From assembly GCA_900543975.1 (NCBI GenBank), contig UQTI01000004.1, positions 1,474 through 65,473 of the forward strand: a stretch of DNA of 64,000 nt, given 5' to 3'. Under the pieces are notes generated by a model. It made no database searches, was not told where the DNA came from, and saw only the letters and a program-made list of their open reading frames with translations. The position numbers and the translations under genes were made by a program. Numbering within the stretch: the first letter of the stretch is position 1; each line of letters opens with the position of its first letter. This DNA comes from an uncultured Prevotella sp. Its GTDB lineage: Bacteria; Bacteroidota; Bacteroidia; Bacteroidales; Bacteroidaceae. Below, one piece after another: positions 2,592 through 47,910 of the stretch.

Positions 2592-4376
2592 TCAGTTTCT
2601 TTTCGACTTCTTTTTCAGTTCGAGCTTGGGAATTTTCACCTTCGTGCCTTCTGTCACCTCCTTGCCGTTGAGGGCTTCGACATAACACTCCATGCCTTCA
2701 CCCAGATGGGCGCGGCTGATGGAAGCGAGCGTCTGCCCCCGGCGTGCCACAACGACCTGTGCCACACCTGTTATGCGGTAGGCACCTGTCCTGACGCGCG
2801 GGTCGGAATTGTAAGAAGAGGGTTGGGCGGTTGCCTGTCGGGAGCCTTTAGGTTGGGCTGACGGGCCGTGGGCCGCTGCCGACGGTTTGGCGGCAGGAGC
2901 AGGGCGGTTGGCAGCAGGTTTTGCGGGTTTAGGTTCTGACGGGGCGTTGGATGAGCCTTGAGGGGCGCTGGCTTGAGGGGCTGCGGCTGACGGGGCGTTG
3001 GCAGATTTAGACAGGGTGCTGCCTTGAGGGGCGGTTCCCTGAGAGGTGCTGCCTTGCGGGGCGGTTGCTTGCGGGGCGGTTGCTTGAGAGGCGTCTGTTG
3101 GCGCCGTCTGGTCTTTCGTCGCAGCCAGACTGTCTTGTTCAGGCTCGAAGGCAGACCTTTCCTGAAGCATTATGGGGGTGGGTTCAGAGGCCAGGTAGAA
3201 GCAGCCTGCTCCTATCGTTGCAAGCAGCATGACGACACACAGGGCGAGCACCCAGAGCCACAGGCGCATGCGGCGCACGCGCTTCGTGAGCACGAAGTTG
3301 GCGTTCTTCAGCTTGCGGTTCTCGTTGGTGTAGACGAAGCTTTGCTGCTTCATGTCAAACACCTGCTTGCGCAGGTCGTTGGCTATGGAAAGGGCGTCGC
3401 GCAGCTGCTTGTTCCCGGAACCGTCGGCGGCTTGGGAAGAGGCGGTCGAGAGCTGCTTTGACGAGTCGGAAAGGCGCTCCGAGGCCGACGACAGCTTGTC
3501 GGACACGTCGCTCAGCTTGCTCGACGCCGACGACAGCTTGTCGGAAGCATCGGTAAGCTTGTCGGCAACGACATGTATCGGGGTTGGGGCTTCTTCTTTA
3601 TTGGAACCGTCAGCTGGAGCTTTATCTTCAGCTGGGGCTTCTTCTTTAATGGAACCTTCGGCTGGGGCTTTATCTTCGGCTGGAGCTTCATCTTCAGCTG
3701 GGGCTTCTTCTTTAATGGAACCTTCGGCTGGGGCTTTATCTTCAGCGGGGGCTTCATCTTTAATGGAACCTTCGGCTGGAGCTTTATCTTCGGCTGGAGC
3801 TTCTTCTTTAATGGAACCGTCAGCTGGAGCTTTATCTTCGGCTGGGGCTTCATCTTTAATGGAACCGTCAGCTGGAGCTTTATCTTCAGCGGGGGCTTTA
3901 TCTTCAGCTGGAGTTTCATTCTCCTCATCGGCTGTTTCTTCCTCCTCAGCAGCCTCATTCTCCTCAGCAGCCTCGTTCTCTTCAGCCGTTTCGTTTTCAT
4001 CATTCTCCTCAGCCTCTTCTTCTGCCTCAGGGCTTTCGTCTAAGGAAGAAAATTCGACGCCGTCGTTAAGCACAACCGTCTCAAACTGTGCAAACGGGCT
4101 GTTCACGCGGTCGCGGAGAACCACGTCGGGAACAAACGTTATCTTGTTTCGGCTGTCGATGACGATGCGCTCACCCGTGTTCACGTCAACGCTTTCGCGG
4201 GCTCCCACGGGTGTGAGCTTGAATGTGCCAAGGCCCTTGACCTTCACAACGCCCTCTTGCTCAACGGCTTTAAGCAAGACGTCAAACATCTGGGCAACAA
4301 ACTTGTCGGCGTCGGCTTCGGGGAGAGCATAACGCTTGGTCAGCGCTTCGGAAAGCACAGGATACTTGCTGCTCAT
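2592..4376 (-). CDS. HU-like DNA-binding domain / acidic tandem-repeat / transmembrane / LysM-type C-terminal domain protein (HU-CCDC81-like architecture)
   Basis: N-terminal ~100 aa resemble HU (KVKGLGTFKLTPVGARESVDVNTGERIVI). This is followed by about 7 copies of the 16-aa repeat EAPAEDKAPAEGSIKE, a heptad-like DKLSxAS repeat, one hydrophobic TM helix (WLWVLALCVVMLLATIGAGCFYLA), a Pro/Gln/Ala-rich linker and a C-terminal LysM-like motif (YRITGVAQVVVARRGQTLASISRAHLGE...VKIP). It overlaps the upstream HU gene by 4 nt (ATGA). Confidence 0.75.
   Translation of the reverse strand: MSSKYPVLSEALTKRYALPEADADKFVAQMFDVLLKAVEQEGVVKVKGLGTFKLTPVGARESVDVNTGERIVIDSRNKITFVPDVVLRDRVNSPFAQFETVVLNDGVEFSSLDESPEAEEEAEENDENETAEENEAAEENEAAEEEETADEENETPAEDKAPAEDKAPADGSIKDEAPAEDKAPADGSIKEEAPAEDKAPAEGSIKDEAPAEDKAPAEGSIKEEAPAEDEAPAEDKAPAEGSIKEEAPAEDKAPADGSNKEEAPTPIHVVADKLTDASDKLSSASSKLSDVSDKLSSASERLSDSSKQLSTASSQAADGSGNKQLRDALSIANDLRKQVFDMKQQSFVYTNENRKLKNANFVLTKRVRRMRLWLWVLALCVVMLLATIGAGCFYLASEPTPIMLQERSAFEPEQDSLAATKDQTAPTDASQATAPQATAPQGSTSQGTAPQGSTLSKSANAPSAAAPQASAPQGSSNAPSEPKPAKPAANRPAPAAKPSAAAHGPSAQPKGSRQATAQPSSYNSDPRVRTGAYRITGVAQVVVARRGQTLASISRAHLGEGMECYVEALNGKEVTEGTKVKIPKLELKKKSKRN
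3578..3905. repeat. in-frame 48-nt tandem repeat (about 7 copies) inside the HU-LysM gene
   Basis: Repeated unit ...ggggcttcttctttaatggaaccttcggctggggctttatcttc... encoding EAPAEDKAPAEGSIKE on the minus strand. Copies are near-identical. Confidence 0.7.
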
Positions 4377-8138: not shown

Positions 8139-8414
8139 ATGAGCACAGAAAACTCTCAACAGATAACGAAAGACAGCGTGGAACAGGCGTTCTGCTTTTT
8201 CCATCAGAAATGGCGCGTGTATGAACATTCTACTATGGATTGGCAAAAGGACGATATAGAATATGCCATCTCTCAATATGTCGAAGAAATGAACACAGCC
8301 CTCTACTCTACCCTCTCGTCCGGAAACAACCATTATCTGCTCACACACGACAGCTTCGCTAAGGATCTGCCTGACGCAATAGACAGACTGGAGGAAATGA
8401 TGGAAAATATTTAA
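8139..8414 (+). CDS. hypothetical protein
   Basis: 91 aa ORF followed by a clean terminator at 8569-8604. No recognisable domain. Confidence 0.35.
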   Translation: MSTENSQQITKDSVEQAFCFFHQKWRVYEHSTMDWQKDDIEYAISQYVEEMNTALYSTLSSGNNHYLLTHDSFAKDLPDAIDRLEEMMENI

Positions 8415-8568
8415 AGGTAAAAGGGTGCTTTAAAGGTAAAAAGGGAGCTTTAAAAGTAAAAAGGTAAAAGGGTAAAAAGGTAAAAAAAGGGCTGGCGCCG
8501 TTGAAAGGAAACGGTAAAAAGGGAAAAAGGTAAAAAAAGGCTGGCTGGGAGCAATATGAATGATTAAC

Positions 8569-40719: not shown

Positions 40720-42037
40720 AAAATGCGCCGAGGACAAAGTTACGGATATTTTCTGTAAAGAGATTTACTTTTAGAAGGAAAAAAGCTTTGTCATTTGATT
40801 TTTTATAGCGCCAACTTGCTTGAAACCGCTTCCAAACAAGATTTCGTTGCAACTGTTAAGATGTACAGATGTGAGCAGTTGCAGCATCAAAATGTGTTGA
40901 AACGATGAGATTGAGCGTGGTTTGAGGATGCATAAGGGCAAGAAATGCACAATTATGAGCTTTTATACAATGCTTAAAAATGGATGAAGCGTTTGTCGCC
41001 AACGCTGCAACTCGCTAGGTATAAGCCTTTTAGAGGGAAGCAACAGACAGTAAAAGCGTTTCAGTTTCAGTTGTTTCAGTTGATTTTTAAGGAGTACAGC
41101 ATTCTACTCTCTTTATGTAATATATTGATTATTAATTAGTTATAAATAATATAAAGAGGATATGAAACATAACTGACCCTTAAAAAACGAACTGAAACTG
41201 AAACAACTGAAACGCTTTGACAAACCAAGATGTTTCATTATCACCTCTCAAGCAAGCGTCGCATGCCATGAAGAGGCTTGGATGCTTCCAAAAATAAGAC
41301 AGAATGTGTAGATAAAAAGGATAGAATTTGTAGAAAAAGAGGGTTGAAAACATGTAAAAGGGGTTAGAAAGCACGCAAAAGGGGTTAGAAGATATAAAAT
41401 GTGCTCCATTTAGATGTGTTGCATGTTCAGCAAAATATAATGGAACAAAGGGCTTTTGCATGGTTTTTGACCGTTACAAGAGCAAAATAGAGGGAAAAAG
41501 GTGGGAAAAAACCTGTGTTTTGCAGCTTTACAAGGGTGTTTTTTGATGTTTTGTCCTTTCTCATTCGCTGCCTCAAACCCGTAAAGCGTTGATAATGAGC
41601 CTTTTAGAAAGAAGCAAGCAACCCGTCGGTTCCAATTCCAGTTATTCCAATTATTTTTTTTGTATTTCCATTATCTTATATTTATATATATATTATATAT
41701 ATAATATATTAATAATCAATAAGTTATAAAGCTCTTAAAAAGAGGGTTCGCATTTGAAATGCCATTTTTTTAATTGGAATAACTGGAATTGGAACCACTG
41801 GATGGAATAACTGGAATTGGAATAACTGGAATTGGAATAACTGGAATTGGAACAGGAACATCTGAAACAGAAAGGTGTCTTATCGTTAAGCCAAAAGAGC
41901 AGAACCGAGCTTGCTCAGAATCTGCCATCGCGAGAAAAGGTGCTATAAAACAGAACGACAGGTAACATTAAAAAAAACGTCAGGTTTGTCACCTGACGTT
42001 CTGTTTCAAGATTGATGAATAGAAGCCCAATGGTTCT
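40720..42037. repeat. 1.3 kb non-coding block containing two palindromic elements of identical architecture (conserved AGCCTTTTAGArrGAAGCAA box, 26-28 bp inverted-repeat arms made of short tandem units, and a 110-116 bp AT-rich spacer)
   Basis: Element 1: arms 41054-41081 (TTTCAG x3) and 41190-41217 (CTGAAA x3). Element 2: a perfect 26-bp IR, GGTTCCAATTCCAGTTATTCCAATTA at 41629-41654, with its reverse complement at 41771-41796, followed by 4x GGAATAACTGGAATT tandem repeats. Confidence 0.6.
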
Positions 42038-43927: not shown

Positions 43928-44208
43928 GATTTATCTTCTTTTAGTTATCGGTTATTTGTTGTTTTAGCTCTAAAGCTATTGTCTGTTCGCTCGGCTTTGC
44001 CGTTTGCAGCAACAACTTCAGAACCTGCAAAAGTTCAATATAAGCAGGTCGTTAAAACAAAAGCAAGGCAATGGCTAACAGACTCTCTACCCACGAAGAA
44101 GAAAAGCCGGTTGGCAATTGCCTTGATTGTTTGTGCTAAGAAACAGCTCCCCACGCTAAAGAGAGAGAGCGTTTCTTGCTTTATTGCTTGTTTTTTTACT
44201 TTTTTTGC

Positions 44209-45126
44209 TTATTTGTTGACCTGATATTTTGTGCAGCCACTCTCAAAGAAGGCGTTGATCTGCTTTGCAGCAGCTATGCCGGCGTTGGTGTTGGCCTCGG
44301 CTGTCTGTGCGCCCATCTTCTTGGGAGTGGAGAAATAGCGTCCCTCAAACTGTGCAAACTCGGCATCGGCATCGGGCTTGATGTCGGTAACGAAGCGCAG
44401 GTCGGCACGCTCGGCCATGAGCTTTATGAGCTCGGGCTCGTTGATGACCTCCTTACGCGCCGTGTTGATGAGTATGCCGCCCTTCTCAAGCTTGTTGACA
44501 AGGGCATAGTTGATGCTCTGCTTGGTCTCGGGTGTGGCAGGGATGTGGAGCGACACGATGTCACACTTCTCAAACAGCTCCTCCTGCGAGTTGACAGCAT
44601 GAACGCCAGCCTCCTCTATGGCAGCCTTGGGGCAGAAGGCATCGTAGGCATAGACCTCCATGCCGAAGCCTTTGGCTATGCGTGCCACGTTGCGGCCCAC
44701 GTTGCCGAAGGCGAGGATGCCGAGGCGCTTGCCCTTGAGCTCTGTGCCTGCCTTGCCGTTATAGAAGTTGCGCACGGTGAAGACGAGCAGGCCAAACACC
44801 AGCTCTGCCACGGCGTTAGAGTTCTGGCCGGGAGTGTTCTCCACAACCACACCCTTCTGCTTGGCATAGGCCGTGTCGATGCTGTCGTAGCCAGCACCTG
44901 CACGCACCACGATCTTAAGCTGCTTGGCAGCATCAAGCACCTCGGGTGTGACCTTGTCTGAGCGCACGATCATGGCGTCAGCATCGGCTACGGCAGCCTT
45001 AAGGTCTGCCACATCTGTATATTTCTCCAAGAGCACGAGCTTGTGGCCTGCTCCTTCTATTTCTTTCTTTATGCCTTCTACTGCTTCTGCAGCAAACGGC
45101 TTTTCTGTCGCTACAAGAATGTTCAT
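44209..45126 (-). CDS. serA: D-3-phosphoglycerate dehydrogenase (short-form 2-hydroxyacid dehydrogenase)
   Basis: 305 aa D-isomer-specific 2-hydroxyacid dehydrogenase with an NAD-binding GxGxxG (GILAFGNVGRNVA). Sits next to serC. Confidence 0.8.
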   Translation of the reverse strand: MNILVATEKPFAAEAVEGIKKEIEGAGHKLVLLEKYTDVADLKAAVADADAMIVRSDKVTPEVLDAAKQLKIVVRAGAGYDSIDTAYAKQKGVVVENTPGQNSNAVAELVFGLLVFTVRNFYNGKAGTELKGKRLGILAFGNVGRNVARIAKGFGMEVYAYDAFCPKAAIEEAGVHAVNSQEELFEKCDIVSLHIPATPETKQSINYALVNKLEKGGILINTARKEVINEPELIKLMAERADLRFVTDIKPDADAEFAQFEGRYFSTPKKMGAQTAEANTNAGIAAAKQINAFFESGCTKYQVNK

Positions 45127-45561
45127 TTTTGAATTTTGATTTTTGAATTTTGAATTTTGAATTGTTGCGCCTGATGGCGCAATTATGAGTTTTGAATTTT
45201 GATTTTTGAATTTTGAATTATCGGCTTTCAGCCGATTTTGATTTTTTGAAATTTGCGCTCGGCTCGTAGAGACGCTTGCCTAAGCAAGAATTATTGCGCA
45301 AGAGCAATTTTTATTTTACACTCGGCTCGTAGAGACACAGGCCTAAGCAAGAATTATTGCGGCTTTGCCTCAATTATGGATTAATCAATTCTTTATTTGG
45401 AAAATCAAAAATTGATAATTCATAAATTGATAATTCAAAATTGATAATTCAAAATTGATAATTCAAAATTGATAATCCAAAAATTGATAATTCAAAAATC
45501 GATAATTCAAAATCGGCTGAAAGCCGATAATTCAAAAATCAAAACTCAAAACTCAAAATTC
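45127..45561. mobile_element. MITE-like composite palindromic repeat element between serC and serA
   Basis: About 45-bp terminal inverted repeats (45196-45240 vs 45496-45545, each containing the ATCGGCTTTCAGCCGAT hairpin). TTTTGAATTTTGA repeats on the left and 7x ATTGATAATTCAAA tandem repeats on the right. Two internal copies of CGCTCGGCT...GCCTAAGCAAGAATTATTGCG. Confidence 0.5.
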
Positions 45562-46629
45562 TCAATGCTTTGCTTCAAACTCTTTCATGCAGTCAACCAA
45601 CGCCTGCACGCCCTCAAGCGGCTGAGCGTTGTAGCAGCTGGCACGGAAGCCGCCAACAGAGCGGTGGCCCTTGATGCCGACCATACCCTTGGATGTGGCA
45701 AACTCGAAGAAAGGCTTCTCAAGCTCAGCATACTCGTCGTTCATGACGAAGCAGATGTTCATGACAGAACGGTCTTCCTCCTTAACGGTTCCGCGGAACA
45801 GCTTGTTGCGGTCGATCTCGCCGTAGAGCAGCTCTGCACGCTCCTTTGCAAGCTTGTCCATGGCTTCAACGCCACCCTTGGCCTTCAGCCAACGCAGGGT
45901 CTCAAGAGCCGAGTAGATGGGCACCACGGGAGGAGTGTTGAACATAGAACCCTTCTCCACATGTGTGCGATAGTCAAGCATGGTAGGAATCTGGCGAGGA
46001 GCCTTGCCCAAAGCGTCGTTCTTCACGATAGCGAGGGTCACACCGGCCATGGCGAGGTTCTTCTGGGCACCAGCATAGATGCAGTCGTATTTTGACACGT
46101 CCACAGGGCGGCTGAAGATGTCGGACGACATGTCGGCAATAAGACGCACAGGTACGTCAAGATCTTTGCGGATCTCAGTACCATAGATCGTGTTGTTGGT
46201 TGTGATGTGCAGATAGTCGGCATCGGCAGGAACGTCCCATCCCTTAGGAATGAACGTGTAGTTGGCATCGGCAGACGAAGCCACCTCAACCACATCGCCA
46301 AAGAGCTTTGCCTCCTTCATGGCCTTCTTTGCCCATGTGCCTGTGTTGAGATATGCGGCCTTCTTTATAAGGAAGTTGAAAGGCACCATACAGAACTCCA
46401 ACGAGGCTCCACCTCCAAGAAACAGCACGGAGTAGCCCTCAGGAATGTTGAGGATCTCCTTGATGAGCGACTCTGCTTCGTCGACAACAGGCTGGAAATC
46501 TTTGGAACGATGACTGATCTCAGCGAGTGACAGTCCGGTACCATTGAAATCTAAAATCTGTTTCGCAGTATTCTCAATCACCTCTCTTGGAAGGATTGAC
46601 GGACCTGCATTAAAGTTGTACTTTTTCAT
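45562..46629 (-). CDS. serC: phosphoserine aminotransferase
   Basis: 355 aa class V aminotransferase ([10 protein letters not shown]...), typical SerC. Confidence 0.9.
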
Positions 46630-47091
46630 CTGTATGTATTTTTTTGATTAATACTCTATTTCTATTTTCAGTTTTTATACGTTGTTTCAGTTACGGTAAA
46701 ATATGTCGTAGGACATGTTTTCTACTTTTCGTAAGATTGTAGATGCGAAATTACACCTTTTATTTGAAACACACAAATAAAAAGACAATAATTTACTATC
46801 TAAGGAAAAATAATTACATTTTGACATTTTCAAAGAAAACGTTTTCACATGTTTTTGGTGGTGTTTCCGTGCCTTACACCTTATTTTATAAGACGATGAG
46901 TTCTTGCTTTGGCAAGCAATTTCTAAGAATTAAAATTTCTCTTCGTGTTTGCTTTTCATCATTCTTTGTTGTATCTTTGCATAAGATAAGCTGCACCTCG
47001 GCATAATATTCAAGCAAGCTTGATATTCTGCTCTCGGTTTGCATTATCTTTGCATAACTTTGCGCAACATGCGAACAAAAACGAGAACAAG

Positions 47092-47865: not shown

Positions 47866-47910
47866 TACTTGTCCGCTCGGCTTGCCGCTTGCCTAAGCAA
47901 GAACTATCCA
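47866..47910. repeat. third copy of the interspersed CGCTCGGCT...GCCTAAGCAAGAA repeat
   Basis: gtccgctcggcttgccgcttgcctaagcaagaactat matches the copies at 45246 and 45313. A partial copy lies at 43987. Confidence 0.45.

Follow-up and report, generated by a model that had tools for sequence, protein, structure and literature searches.

The serC and serA genes in a 64,000-nucleotide stretch of DNA from an uncultured Prevotella sp. (assembly GCA_900543975.1, contig UQTI01000004.1, positions 1,474 to 65,473; hereafter the window, to which coordinates refer unless a locus number is given) are separated by a 435-bp spacer at positions 45127–45561 that consists almost wholly of repeats. It probably belongs to a family of mosaic extragenic palindromes, dispersed and species-specific, in this human-gut member of the Prevotella/Segatella group, and likely serves as a terminator or RNA-processing structure rather than being a classic transposon. 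The family is characterized by its repeat content, a predicted foldback, dispersal of its modules, hypervariability, an association with gene ends, and restriction to one species. Its building blocks are arrays of the heptamer TTTTGAR and their complement, an array of 14-mers, a 63-nt central module and small GC-rich hairpins (ATCGGCT-TTC-AGCCGAT, TTGCGCC-nnnn-GGCGCAA, and others), and in the spacer they are laid out such that the two halves are reverse complements of each other. The motif counts of the spacer were matched by none of 100 dinucleotide shuffles, and its GC content (~0.28–0.38) is well below that of the genes (0.55–0.60).

The genes are transcribed leftwards, in the order serC, spacer, serA and a DUF1015 gene, and in the sense (minus-strand) direction the TGA stop of serC (45562–45564) abuts the first heptamer unit without a gap. 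The outer U-rich (UUUUGAR)n array (GAAUUUUGAG UUUUGAG UUUUGAU UUUUGAAUU; 45529–45561, minus strand) has a period of 7, with 3.9 copies of TCAAAAC reported by Tandem Repeats Finder (TRF) at 45532–45558. It is followed by the first copy of a hairpin that we refer to as hairpin A (ATCGGCTTTCAGCCGAT then TTTTGAATT; 45512–45528, minus), which in the sense of the genes reads AUCGGCUUUCAGCCGAU then UUUUGAAUU. Next are 7.4 copies of a 14-mer (TRF unit AAAATTGATAATTC, sense GAATTATCAATTTT; 45408–45513, minus), a low-repeat apex (sense ...GATTTTCCAAATAAAGAATTGATTAATCCATAATTGAGGCAAAGC; 45362–45407, minus) that is conserved among strains in two allelic forms, and two direct copies of the central module (45245–45361, minus), each with a CTTGC-TTAG-GCAAG stem-loop and ...TCTCTACGAGCCGAG. 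The serA-proximal part contains a second hairpin A of inverted polarity (ATCGGCTTTCAGCCGAT and TTTGATTTTT; 45220–45236, plus), an inner A-rich (AAUUCAAAA)n array (45183–45219, minus) predicted to pair with the outer U-rich array, a GC-clamp hairpin (TTGCGCCTGATGGCGCAA on the plus strand, UUGCGCCAUCAGGCGCAA in sense; 45165–45182), and an outermost A-rich array (CAAUUCAAAAUUCAAAAUUCAAAAAUCAAAAUUCAAAA; 45127–45164, minus) that forms the serA leader and reaches the serA AUG. TRF reports the whole of 45127–45219 as 13.3 copies of TTTTGAA.

A prior reading of the letters alone (the sequence-only reading) had described a gap of about 430 bp made of repeats, with tandem arrays on either side, a GC-clamp hairpin and two internal copies of a further repeat, and all of these are present; the internal copies correspond to the central modules at 45245–45298 and 45308–45361 (54 nt, 85% identity, period 63). 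It had also described terminal inverted repeats of about 45 bp, each carrying a hairpin. The repeats are there, and ATCGGCTTTCAGCCGAT lies in each (45220–45236 and 45512–45528), but the arms are longer (45182–45255 and 45493–45566; 74 nt, 85% complementary, enclosing ~240 bp) and are not strictly terminal, with 55 nt of heptamers and the GC-clamp hairpin lying outside the left arm. Both arms are arrays of near-identical units, and pairing is possible in many registers. The only open reading frame (ORF) within the spacer is one of 43 aa on the plus strand (45253–45384) that spans the central repeats, is strain-variable in copy number, and has no protein match.

The sense RNA of the spacer is predicted to fold with an energy of −143.4 kcal/mol, compared with −85.1 ± 5.4 for shuffled sequences (z = −10.7), with its two halves paired as a long stem. 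The window copy has three terminator-like hairpins, each directed inward, with predicted energies of −8.8 to −13.4 kcal/mol. The first hairpin A faces transcription coming from serC, and with seven pairs (four of them GC), the tail TTTTGAATT and a predicted ΔG of −8.8 kcal/mol it is a candidate intrinsic (Rho-independent) terminator, having the expected GC-rich stem-loop and U-tract. Antisense transcription arriving from the serA side would meet the mirrored hairpin A and the GC clamp; both are terminator-like on the plus strand, the former lacking a U-tail in sense and the latter (−11.5 to −13.4 kcal/mol) being terminator-like on that strand only. The suggestion in the sequence-only reading that the element may act as a terminator or attenuator is consistent with the hairpins present, and one or the other role is likely. 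Its further proposal of a serA promoter inside the element finds no support: the Bacteroidetes-type motif TAnnTTTG is absent from both strands of the spacer, which is weak evidence as the region upstream of serC also lacks an exact match. Searches of Rfam gave no match in the window at the gathering score, and at a permissive E-value the interval 44900–45800 gave only sub-threshold hits (E ≥ 0.27), none of them meaningful.

The organism is a very common human-gut Prevotella. An exact look-up of its SerA protein matched 2135 collection blocks (gut assemblies of the Hadza and from Nepal among them), the sources naming it 'Prevotella sp.', and SerA of the nearest GTDB species representative is only 88% identical. 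We compared 20 strain versions of the spacer: ten from the SerA look-up, nine from a scan of metagenomes, and that of the window. None of the 20 lacks the element, which measures 305–454 nt, and the differences are of whole modules: there are 2–6 copies of the 14-mer, 0–2.5 of the central module, one or two matched copies of hairpin A, and 0–2 GC clamps, with a third hairpin-A-like stem (ATCGGCTAAAAGCCGAT) in place of the GC clamp in some strains. The outermost A-rich array is kept in 20/20 versions, as are 47–79 long-range base pairs in the minimum-energy fold, and the core has the same orientation in 19, with a variant core in one and an inverted core in none. In the ten look-up versions the SerA protein is identical despite the variation of the spacer. 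Because of this constant presence, the modular differences, the conserved pairing and the lack of inversion, the element is fixed in the species, hypervariable, retentive of its foldback, and not an inverton. The sequence-only reading had looked to related strains for an empty site, and there is none among the 20 versions.

Copies of the modules elsewhere, which the sequence-only reading had anticipated, are abundant. Scanning human-gut metagenome contigs with the exact 20-mer TTATCGGCTTTCAGCCGATT from the hairpin module yielded at least 120 stretches, and nine of those listed are the serC-serA locus. Two others (loci L207 and L224) are unrelated GC-rich chance matches, and in all the rest of those listed the hairpin lies inside (TTTTGAR)n arrays, with many different flanking genes. 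When sites were defined by clustering on their coding flanks, there were at least 27 sites with both flanks (at least 26 without the chance hit) and approximately 20 partial ones. Each clustered site varies in length between samples, for example 188–373, 230–312 and 374–461 nt. The other modules are dispersed too: the GC-clamp module TTGCGCCnnnnGGCGCAA is at no fewer than 40 non-serC loci among the matches listed, relatives of the central module are at L130 and L211 among those matches and as a partial copy in the window (47870–47905), and TTGCGGC...GCCGCAA, GCGCTTCGCGC and the apex sequence TTGTTCAATTTTGAATT recur at further sites. The combination and order of modules differ from site to site, and hairpin A, which is an inverted pair between serC and serA, occurs elsewhere as singlets or direct repeats. 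Within the 64-kb window there is no second hairpin A or heptamer array, only the partial central module. Many of the hit contigs end inside the element (e.g. L129, L139, L150, L158 and L167), as would be the case if these repeats break assemblies.

Several observations bear on whether these sites belong to one genome. In one sample (ERZ791573) several of the hit-contig nodes have near-equal coverage (18.8–21.2x), and one contig carries two element sites. Short repeat families beyond the element, such as that at 8396–8545, are common to the window and the non-serC loci, which supports an origin of all of these sites in one organism or a narrow clade. A search of 1.29 Mb representing 80 further Prevotellaceae species found none of the four modules, and no similarity to them was found in phage, plasmid and IMG/VR collections.

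The elements lie only in spacers into which at least one flanking gene ends. Using one simple gene caller on the window and the 120 listed metagenome loci, for which the calls are rough and the counts non-independent, 42 hairpin-A spacers are convergent, 36 co-directional and none (0/78) divergent, compared with 99, 405 and 90, respectively, for all spacers taken together. Counted by distinct site among the listed loci, approximately 16 are convergent, 8–10 co-directional and none divergent. A TTTTGAR array lies within 12 nt of the stop codon at 18 of 42 element-facing gene 3′ ends, and at ten of these 18 the reading frame runs into the array, such that the stop codon is the TGA of the array itself. 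A heptamer array bearing TGA places a stop codon in every reading frame within 21 nt, because its period is not a multiple of three; this is a property of the sequence and not proof of selection.

These features suggest how the element may act. A transcript leaving a flanking gene would meet, in order, a stop codon, a U-rich array, a GC-rich hairpin and a U-tract, the arrangement of an intrinsic terminator, and with its mirror symmetry the element could terminate transcription from either side. Hairpin A and its U-tract would thus be expected to cause partial termination after serC. RNA that is read through could form a foldback of 60–75 bp pairing the U-rich arm with the A-rich serA leader, and such a foldback is a likely substrate for a double-strand-specific RNase of the RNase III type and may mask serA initiation. 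The net effect would be that serA is attenuated and uncoupled from serC. At the DNA level, the arrays would grow and shrink by replication slippage and by recombination between modules.

Some points weigh against this interpretation. Termination, processing and the effect on serA are all predicted from the sequence. Efficient termination at hairpin A would require serA to have its own promoter, and no canonical one of the Bacteroidetes type is visible in the spacer. The assignment of the other sites to the same species follows from co-occurrence, coverage and shared repeats rather than from a closed genome. A selfish repeat, tolerated at gene ends and no more, would be equally expected to avoid divergent spacers. 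A weak test, a regular-expression screen of the ORFs near the sites for HUH/Tyr transposases, identified no mobilizing enzyme; in the window and the 120 listed loci the RAYT expression (HUH...Y), a motif rather than a profile search, returned only spurious antisense ORFs.

The same intergenic position in related species provides a context for the window element. The serC-serA spacers of 78 Prevotellaceae are 5–430 nt long (median 95) and unrelated in sequence, in keeping with the proposal in the sequence-only reading of an insertion rather than an ancient region conserved across genera. That reading had also described the element as splitting serC from serA, which is apt only in a relative sense, as many Prevotellaceae have hairpin-containing spacers of ~100–200 nt there. 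The closest relatives (L001, L002 and L005) have spacers of 105–116 nt, two of which contain a small hairpin whose arms are made of their own heptamers (AAAGTGA). Inverted period-7 arrays are present in eight of the 78 spacers by a strict criterion, and the array units are species-specific, for example AACTTTG in Segatella copri, with GAAAGTT, GAATTAG and CATTGAA in others. The 20-kb loci contain another 20 multi-register inverted repeats, of period 7, 8 or 14–16, most of them flush with the flanking stops or starts, and three genomes (L027, L032 and L061) each have two elements built on one common unit. We also note that (ATTAAGA)n or (ATTCATA)n foldbacks at L005 5404–5503 and L020 6058–6246 fill a convergent gap exactly, overlapping both stop codons.

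Rumen Prevotella and Xylanibacter ruminicola 23 have, within the serC-serA foldback, a gene encoding a 117–123-aa four-helix-bundle protein of the PF05635/TIGR02436 family (E = 3e-27 and 2e-31), with synteny conserved across species (L024, L036, L038, L053, L091–L101 and L104–L109; e.g. L101 2473–2908 in X. ruminicola 23, CP002006). Inverted (CATTGAC/CATTGAA)n arrays form the arms of these cassettes, abutting the serC stop and nearly reaching the serA start, and A/C changes in one arm are paired with compensatory T/G changes in the other. A second cassette position is directly after serA (L023 8540–9083, L027 10909–11485 and L056 3473–3983), with (GAATTAG)n or (TTGAAAG)n arms, and all seven PF05635 genes in 1.35 Mb of serA-centred loci are in a spacer adjoining serA. 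Elements lacking an ORF at L056 and L061 have an inner repeat (TTTATGATTAGC / GCTAATCATAAA) in common with a gene-bearing element. There are more than 7900 close homologues of the gene, many on contigs of ~0.5–1.2 kb. The window element is linked to these cassettes only by architecture and position.

Four other explanations of the window element can be weighed against a dispersed palindrome family. The sequence-only reading favored a structure like a MITE (miniature inverted-repeat transposable element), which in its strict form would be a deletion derivative of an insertion sequence (IS) that entered between serC and serA and is mobilized in trans by an IS transposase. The element is indeed a small, non-coding, palindromic repeat with inverted-repeat ends and many dispersed intergenic copies, and there is a Bacteroidales precedent in the BrickBuilt MITE of Porphyromonas gingivalis, which has an internal minisatellite (PMC4596501). 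However, no direct repeat that would indicate a target-site duplication is seen at CATTGA|GAATTTTGAG and TTCAAAA|ATGAAC, the two junctions (a comparison of limited power, the ends being undefined), and the element ends in variable arrays where a MITE would have fixed termini. Neither the site-to-site differences in module combination and order nor the 0/20 empty alleles fit such an element, and neither the window nor the 0.93 Mb surrounding the sites yielded a transposase or IS with matching ends. We therefore regard a strict MITE as unlikely, and the structure, a mosaic of independently dispersed modules, is closer to the mosaic BIME and BOX elements discussed below than to an IS deletion derivative. 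A related proposal, which we consider still less probable, is that only the foldback arms are left of an ancestral cassette encoding the PF05635 '23S rRNA intervening sequence protein'. The intact gene between inverted heptamer arrays in the same spacer of rumen Prevotella and X. ruminicola, the compensatory changes in its arms, and the inner repeat shared by gene-bearing and ORF-less elements all speak for it, whereas the window spacer retains no protein or DNA similarity to the cassettes (no remnant in a six-frame translation, with hmmsearch E ≥ 0.24 and BLAST giving nothing beyond short low-complexity matches). Moreover, none of the listed hairpin-A sites of the window species, where the modules recur at 26 or more positions in its own genome, has a PF05635 gene nearby, and the short spacers of the closest relatives also lack the gene.

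That the spacer is a lineage-specific regulatory leader which evolved in place, controlling serA as an attenuator, promoter or riboswitch-like element, would agree with its position directly upstream of serA, its strong structure and its terminator-like hairpins. We attach very little probability to this explanation, and it is largely refuted by the dispersed copies, with the same modules lying between convergent genes at many unrelated loci; in addition, the sequence is hypervariable within a species in which SerA is invariant, the Rfam hits are at chance level, and the TAnnTTTG promoter motif is missing. Invertible promoter segments are common in Bacteroidales, and a pair of 74-nt inverted repeats around ~240 bp could be seen as a phase-variable segment flipped by a site-specific recombinase. 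This is the hardest of the alternatives to credit, as none of the 20 assemblies is inverted (19 having the same core orientation and one the variant core), there is no promoter motif, and at most sites, which are convergent, a switchable promoter would have no target.

The dispersed palindrome family need not be peculiar to this species, and a broader interpretation, which is tentative and which we would not press, is that the Prevotellaceae harbor an undescribed class of foldback elements built of stop-bearing 7–8-nt arrays, some enclosing a PF05635 gene, as the mRNA-operon counterpart of the rRNA intervening sequences. The arrays may be flush with or supply the upstream stop and run into the downstream start, and may be homogenized within species while differing between them, with the window element perhaps an ORF-less member of the class. 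The stem may make the insertion harmless or even useful by way of transcript termination or processing, with the flanking cistrons brought together, and the elements may spread by a hairpin-dependent mechanism.

Several known systems are comparable. The REP (repetitive extragenic palindromic) sequences, bacterial interspersed mosaic elements (BIMEs) and REPINs of Enterobacteria and Pseudomonas are GC-rich hairpins in mosaic, partly palindromic extragenic elements with many copies per genome, located at gene 3′ ends and between cistrons and with a species-specific consensus. The window family resembles these in having short GC-rich palindromes that form mosaics with other motifs and lie at gene 3′ ends or between cistrons and not in divergent spacers, and the two inverted hairpin-A copies around a spacer are similar to a REPIN doublet. 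It differs in that the arms are mostly (TTTTGAR)n arrays, of a kind not known from REP/BIMEs, there is no sequence similarity, the elements are larger (~150–700 bp) and far more variable in length, and no RAYT transposase was found, by motif expression only. The BOX elements of Streptococcus pneumoniae are dispersed intergenic boxA-boxB(n)-boxC assemblies with a predicted stable RNA structure and without a known transposase. They share with the window family a modular organization with a variable number of internal modules, as well as the intergenic dispersal and predicted stable RNA, but are unrelated in sequence and phylum, have a fixed module order where the window family varies in order and content by site, and are not known to contain heptamer arrays or to lie flush against stop codons. 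In its logic the window family can be likened to REP/BIME/REPIN (PMC2817692, PMC3337134) and the pneumococcal BOX, and in its use of tandem repeats to BrickBuilt.

BrickBuilt of P. gingivalis, an intergenic, species-restricted MITE with 19 copies in ATCC 33277 that varies between strains, has a single internal 23-nt minisatellite and small terminal repeats, and lies 49–591 nt from coding sequences (PMC4596501). Both it and the window family are multi-copy intergenic elements of Bacteroidales with inverted-repeat ends and tandem repeats, but in the window family the tandem repeats are the arms themselves, their unit measures 7 nt, and a flanking stop codon is often in contact with the array or inside it. 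Intervening sequences with PF05635 genes occur in the 23S rRNA of Leptospira, Coxiella and others, and have long terminal inverted repeats whose pairing gives the host transcript a stem, which RNase III excises. Such a long stem is also predicted here, and the serC-serA foldback of related Prevotellaceae carries a PF05635 gene, but the window element has no ORF and is in an mRNA operon rather than an rRNA, and excision of its stem by RNase III would be putative. The likeness to foldback elements of Drosophila (FB/Galileo-type; PMC3573991), which are eukaryotic, kilobase-scale and transposase-linked, is architectural only. We found no specific description of such a repeat family in Prevotella or Bacteroidetes in the literature.

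Prevotella and Segatella are dominant bacteria of the human gut and rumen, and their non-coding DNA has hardly been studied. If hypervariable repeats of one family are scattered over gene ends, they would influence the expression of operons, here that of the serine pathway; the variation in length at every site would provide high-resolution strain markers, and the copies break short-read assemblies. The family also offers a tractable case for studying the origin and spread of REP/BIME-like repeats where no transposase is obvious, and the stop-bearing heptamer arrays, some with PF05635 genes, would link it to the old question of the rRNA intervening sequences and their four-helix-bundle proteins.

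The genes that flank the spacer are both on the minus strand. That upstream (serC; 45562–46629) is a 355-aa ORF with a match to Pfam Aminotran_5 (2.3e-35) and is of the phosphoserine aminotransferase type. That downstream (serA; 44209–45126) is a 305-aa ORF with a 2-Hacid_dh domain, of the D-3-phosphoglycerate dehydrogenase type and named 'D-3-phosphoglycerate dehydrogenase' in the source.

Other repeats are present in the window and in loci of the same organism. The partial central module at 47870–47905 (minus strand) consists of TTCTTGCTTAGGCAAGCG, exact over 18 of 18 nt, followed by AGCCGAGCG, and is directly after the stop codon of a DUF711 gene; a looser relative is at 46901–46918, and AGCCGAGCG is found again at 43988–43996 in the serA-DUF1015 spacer. 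Heptamer arrays of (GTGAAGA)n and (AAAGGTA)n, each unit containing a stop codon, lie beside gene stops in the same organism, as do hairpins of the CCCCTCCCTAAGGGGAGGGG type (e.g. L153 13085–13324, L127 3464–3937 and L186 1010–1341). The segment at 8396–8545 contains 150 nt of tandem TTTAAAGGTAAAAAGGGAGC / AAAGGTAA arrays that match at least 26 non-serC metagenome loci, which makes it a second dispersed repeat family of this organism. The window has two further foldbacks. One, at 41058–41213 within 1.3 kb of non-coding DNA that separates two minus-strand genes, has arms of GTTTCAGTT / AACTGAAAC units with small inter-arm indels and an AT-rich core of ~110 nt. The other, at 41626–41855, has 5.5 copies of the 15-mer AATTGGAATAACTGG (41772–41852), an inverted partner at 41628–41653, and a TATA-rich core that resembles the core of the first (..AGTTATAAA..). 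Long coding-type tandem repeats at 3480–3990, whose periods are 48, 66 and 114 nt, in as many as 4.8 copies with 91–94% identity, probably represent a gene for a repeat-containing protein.

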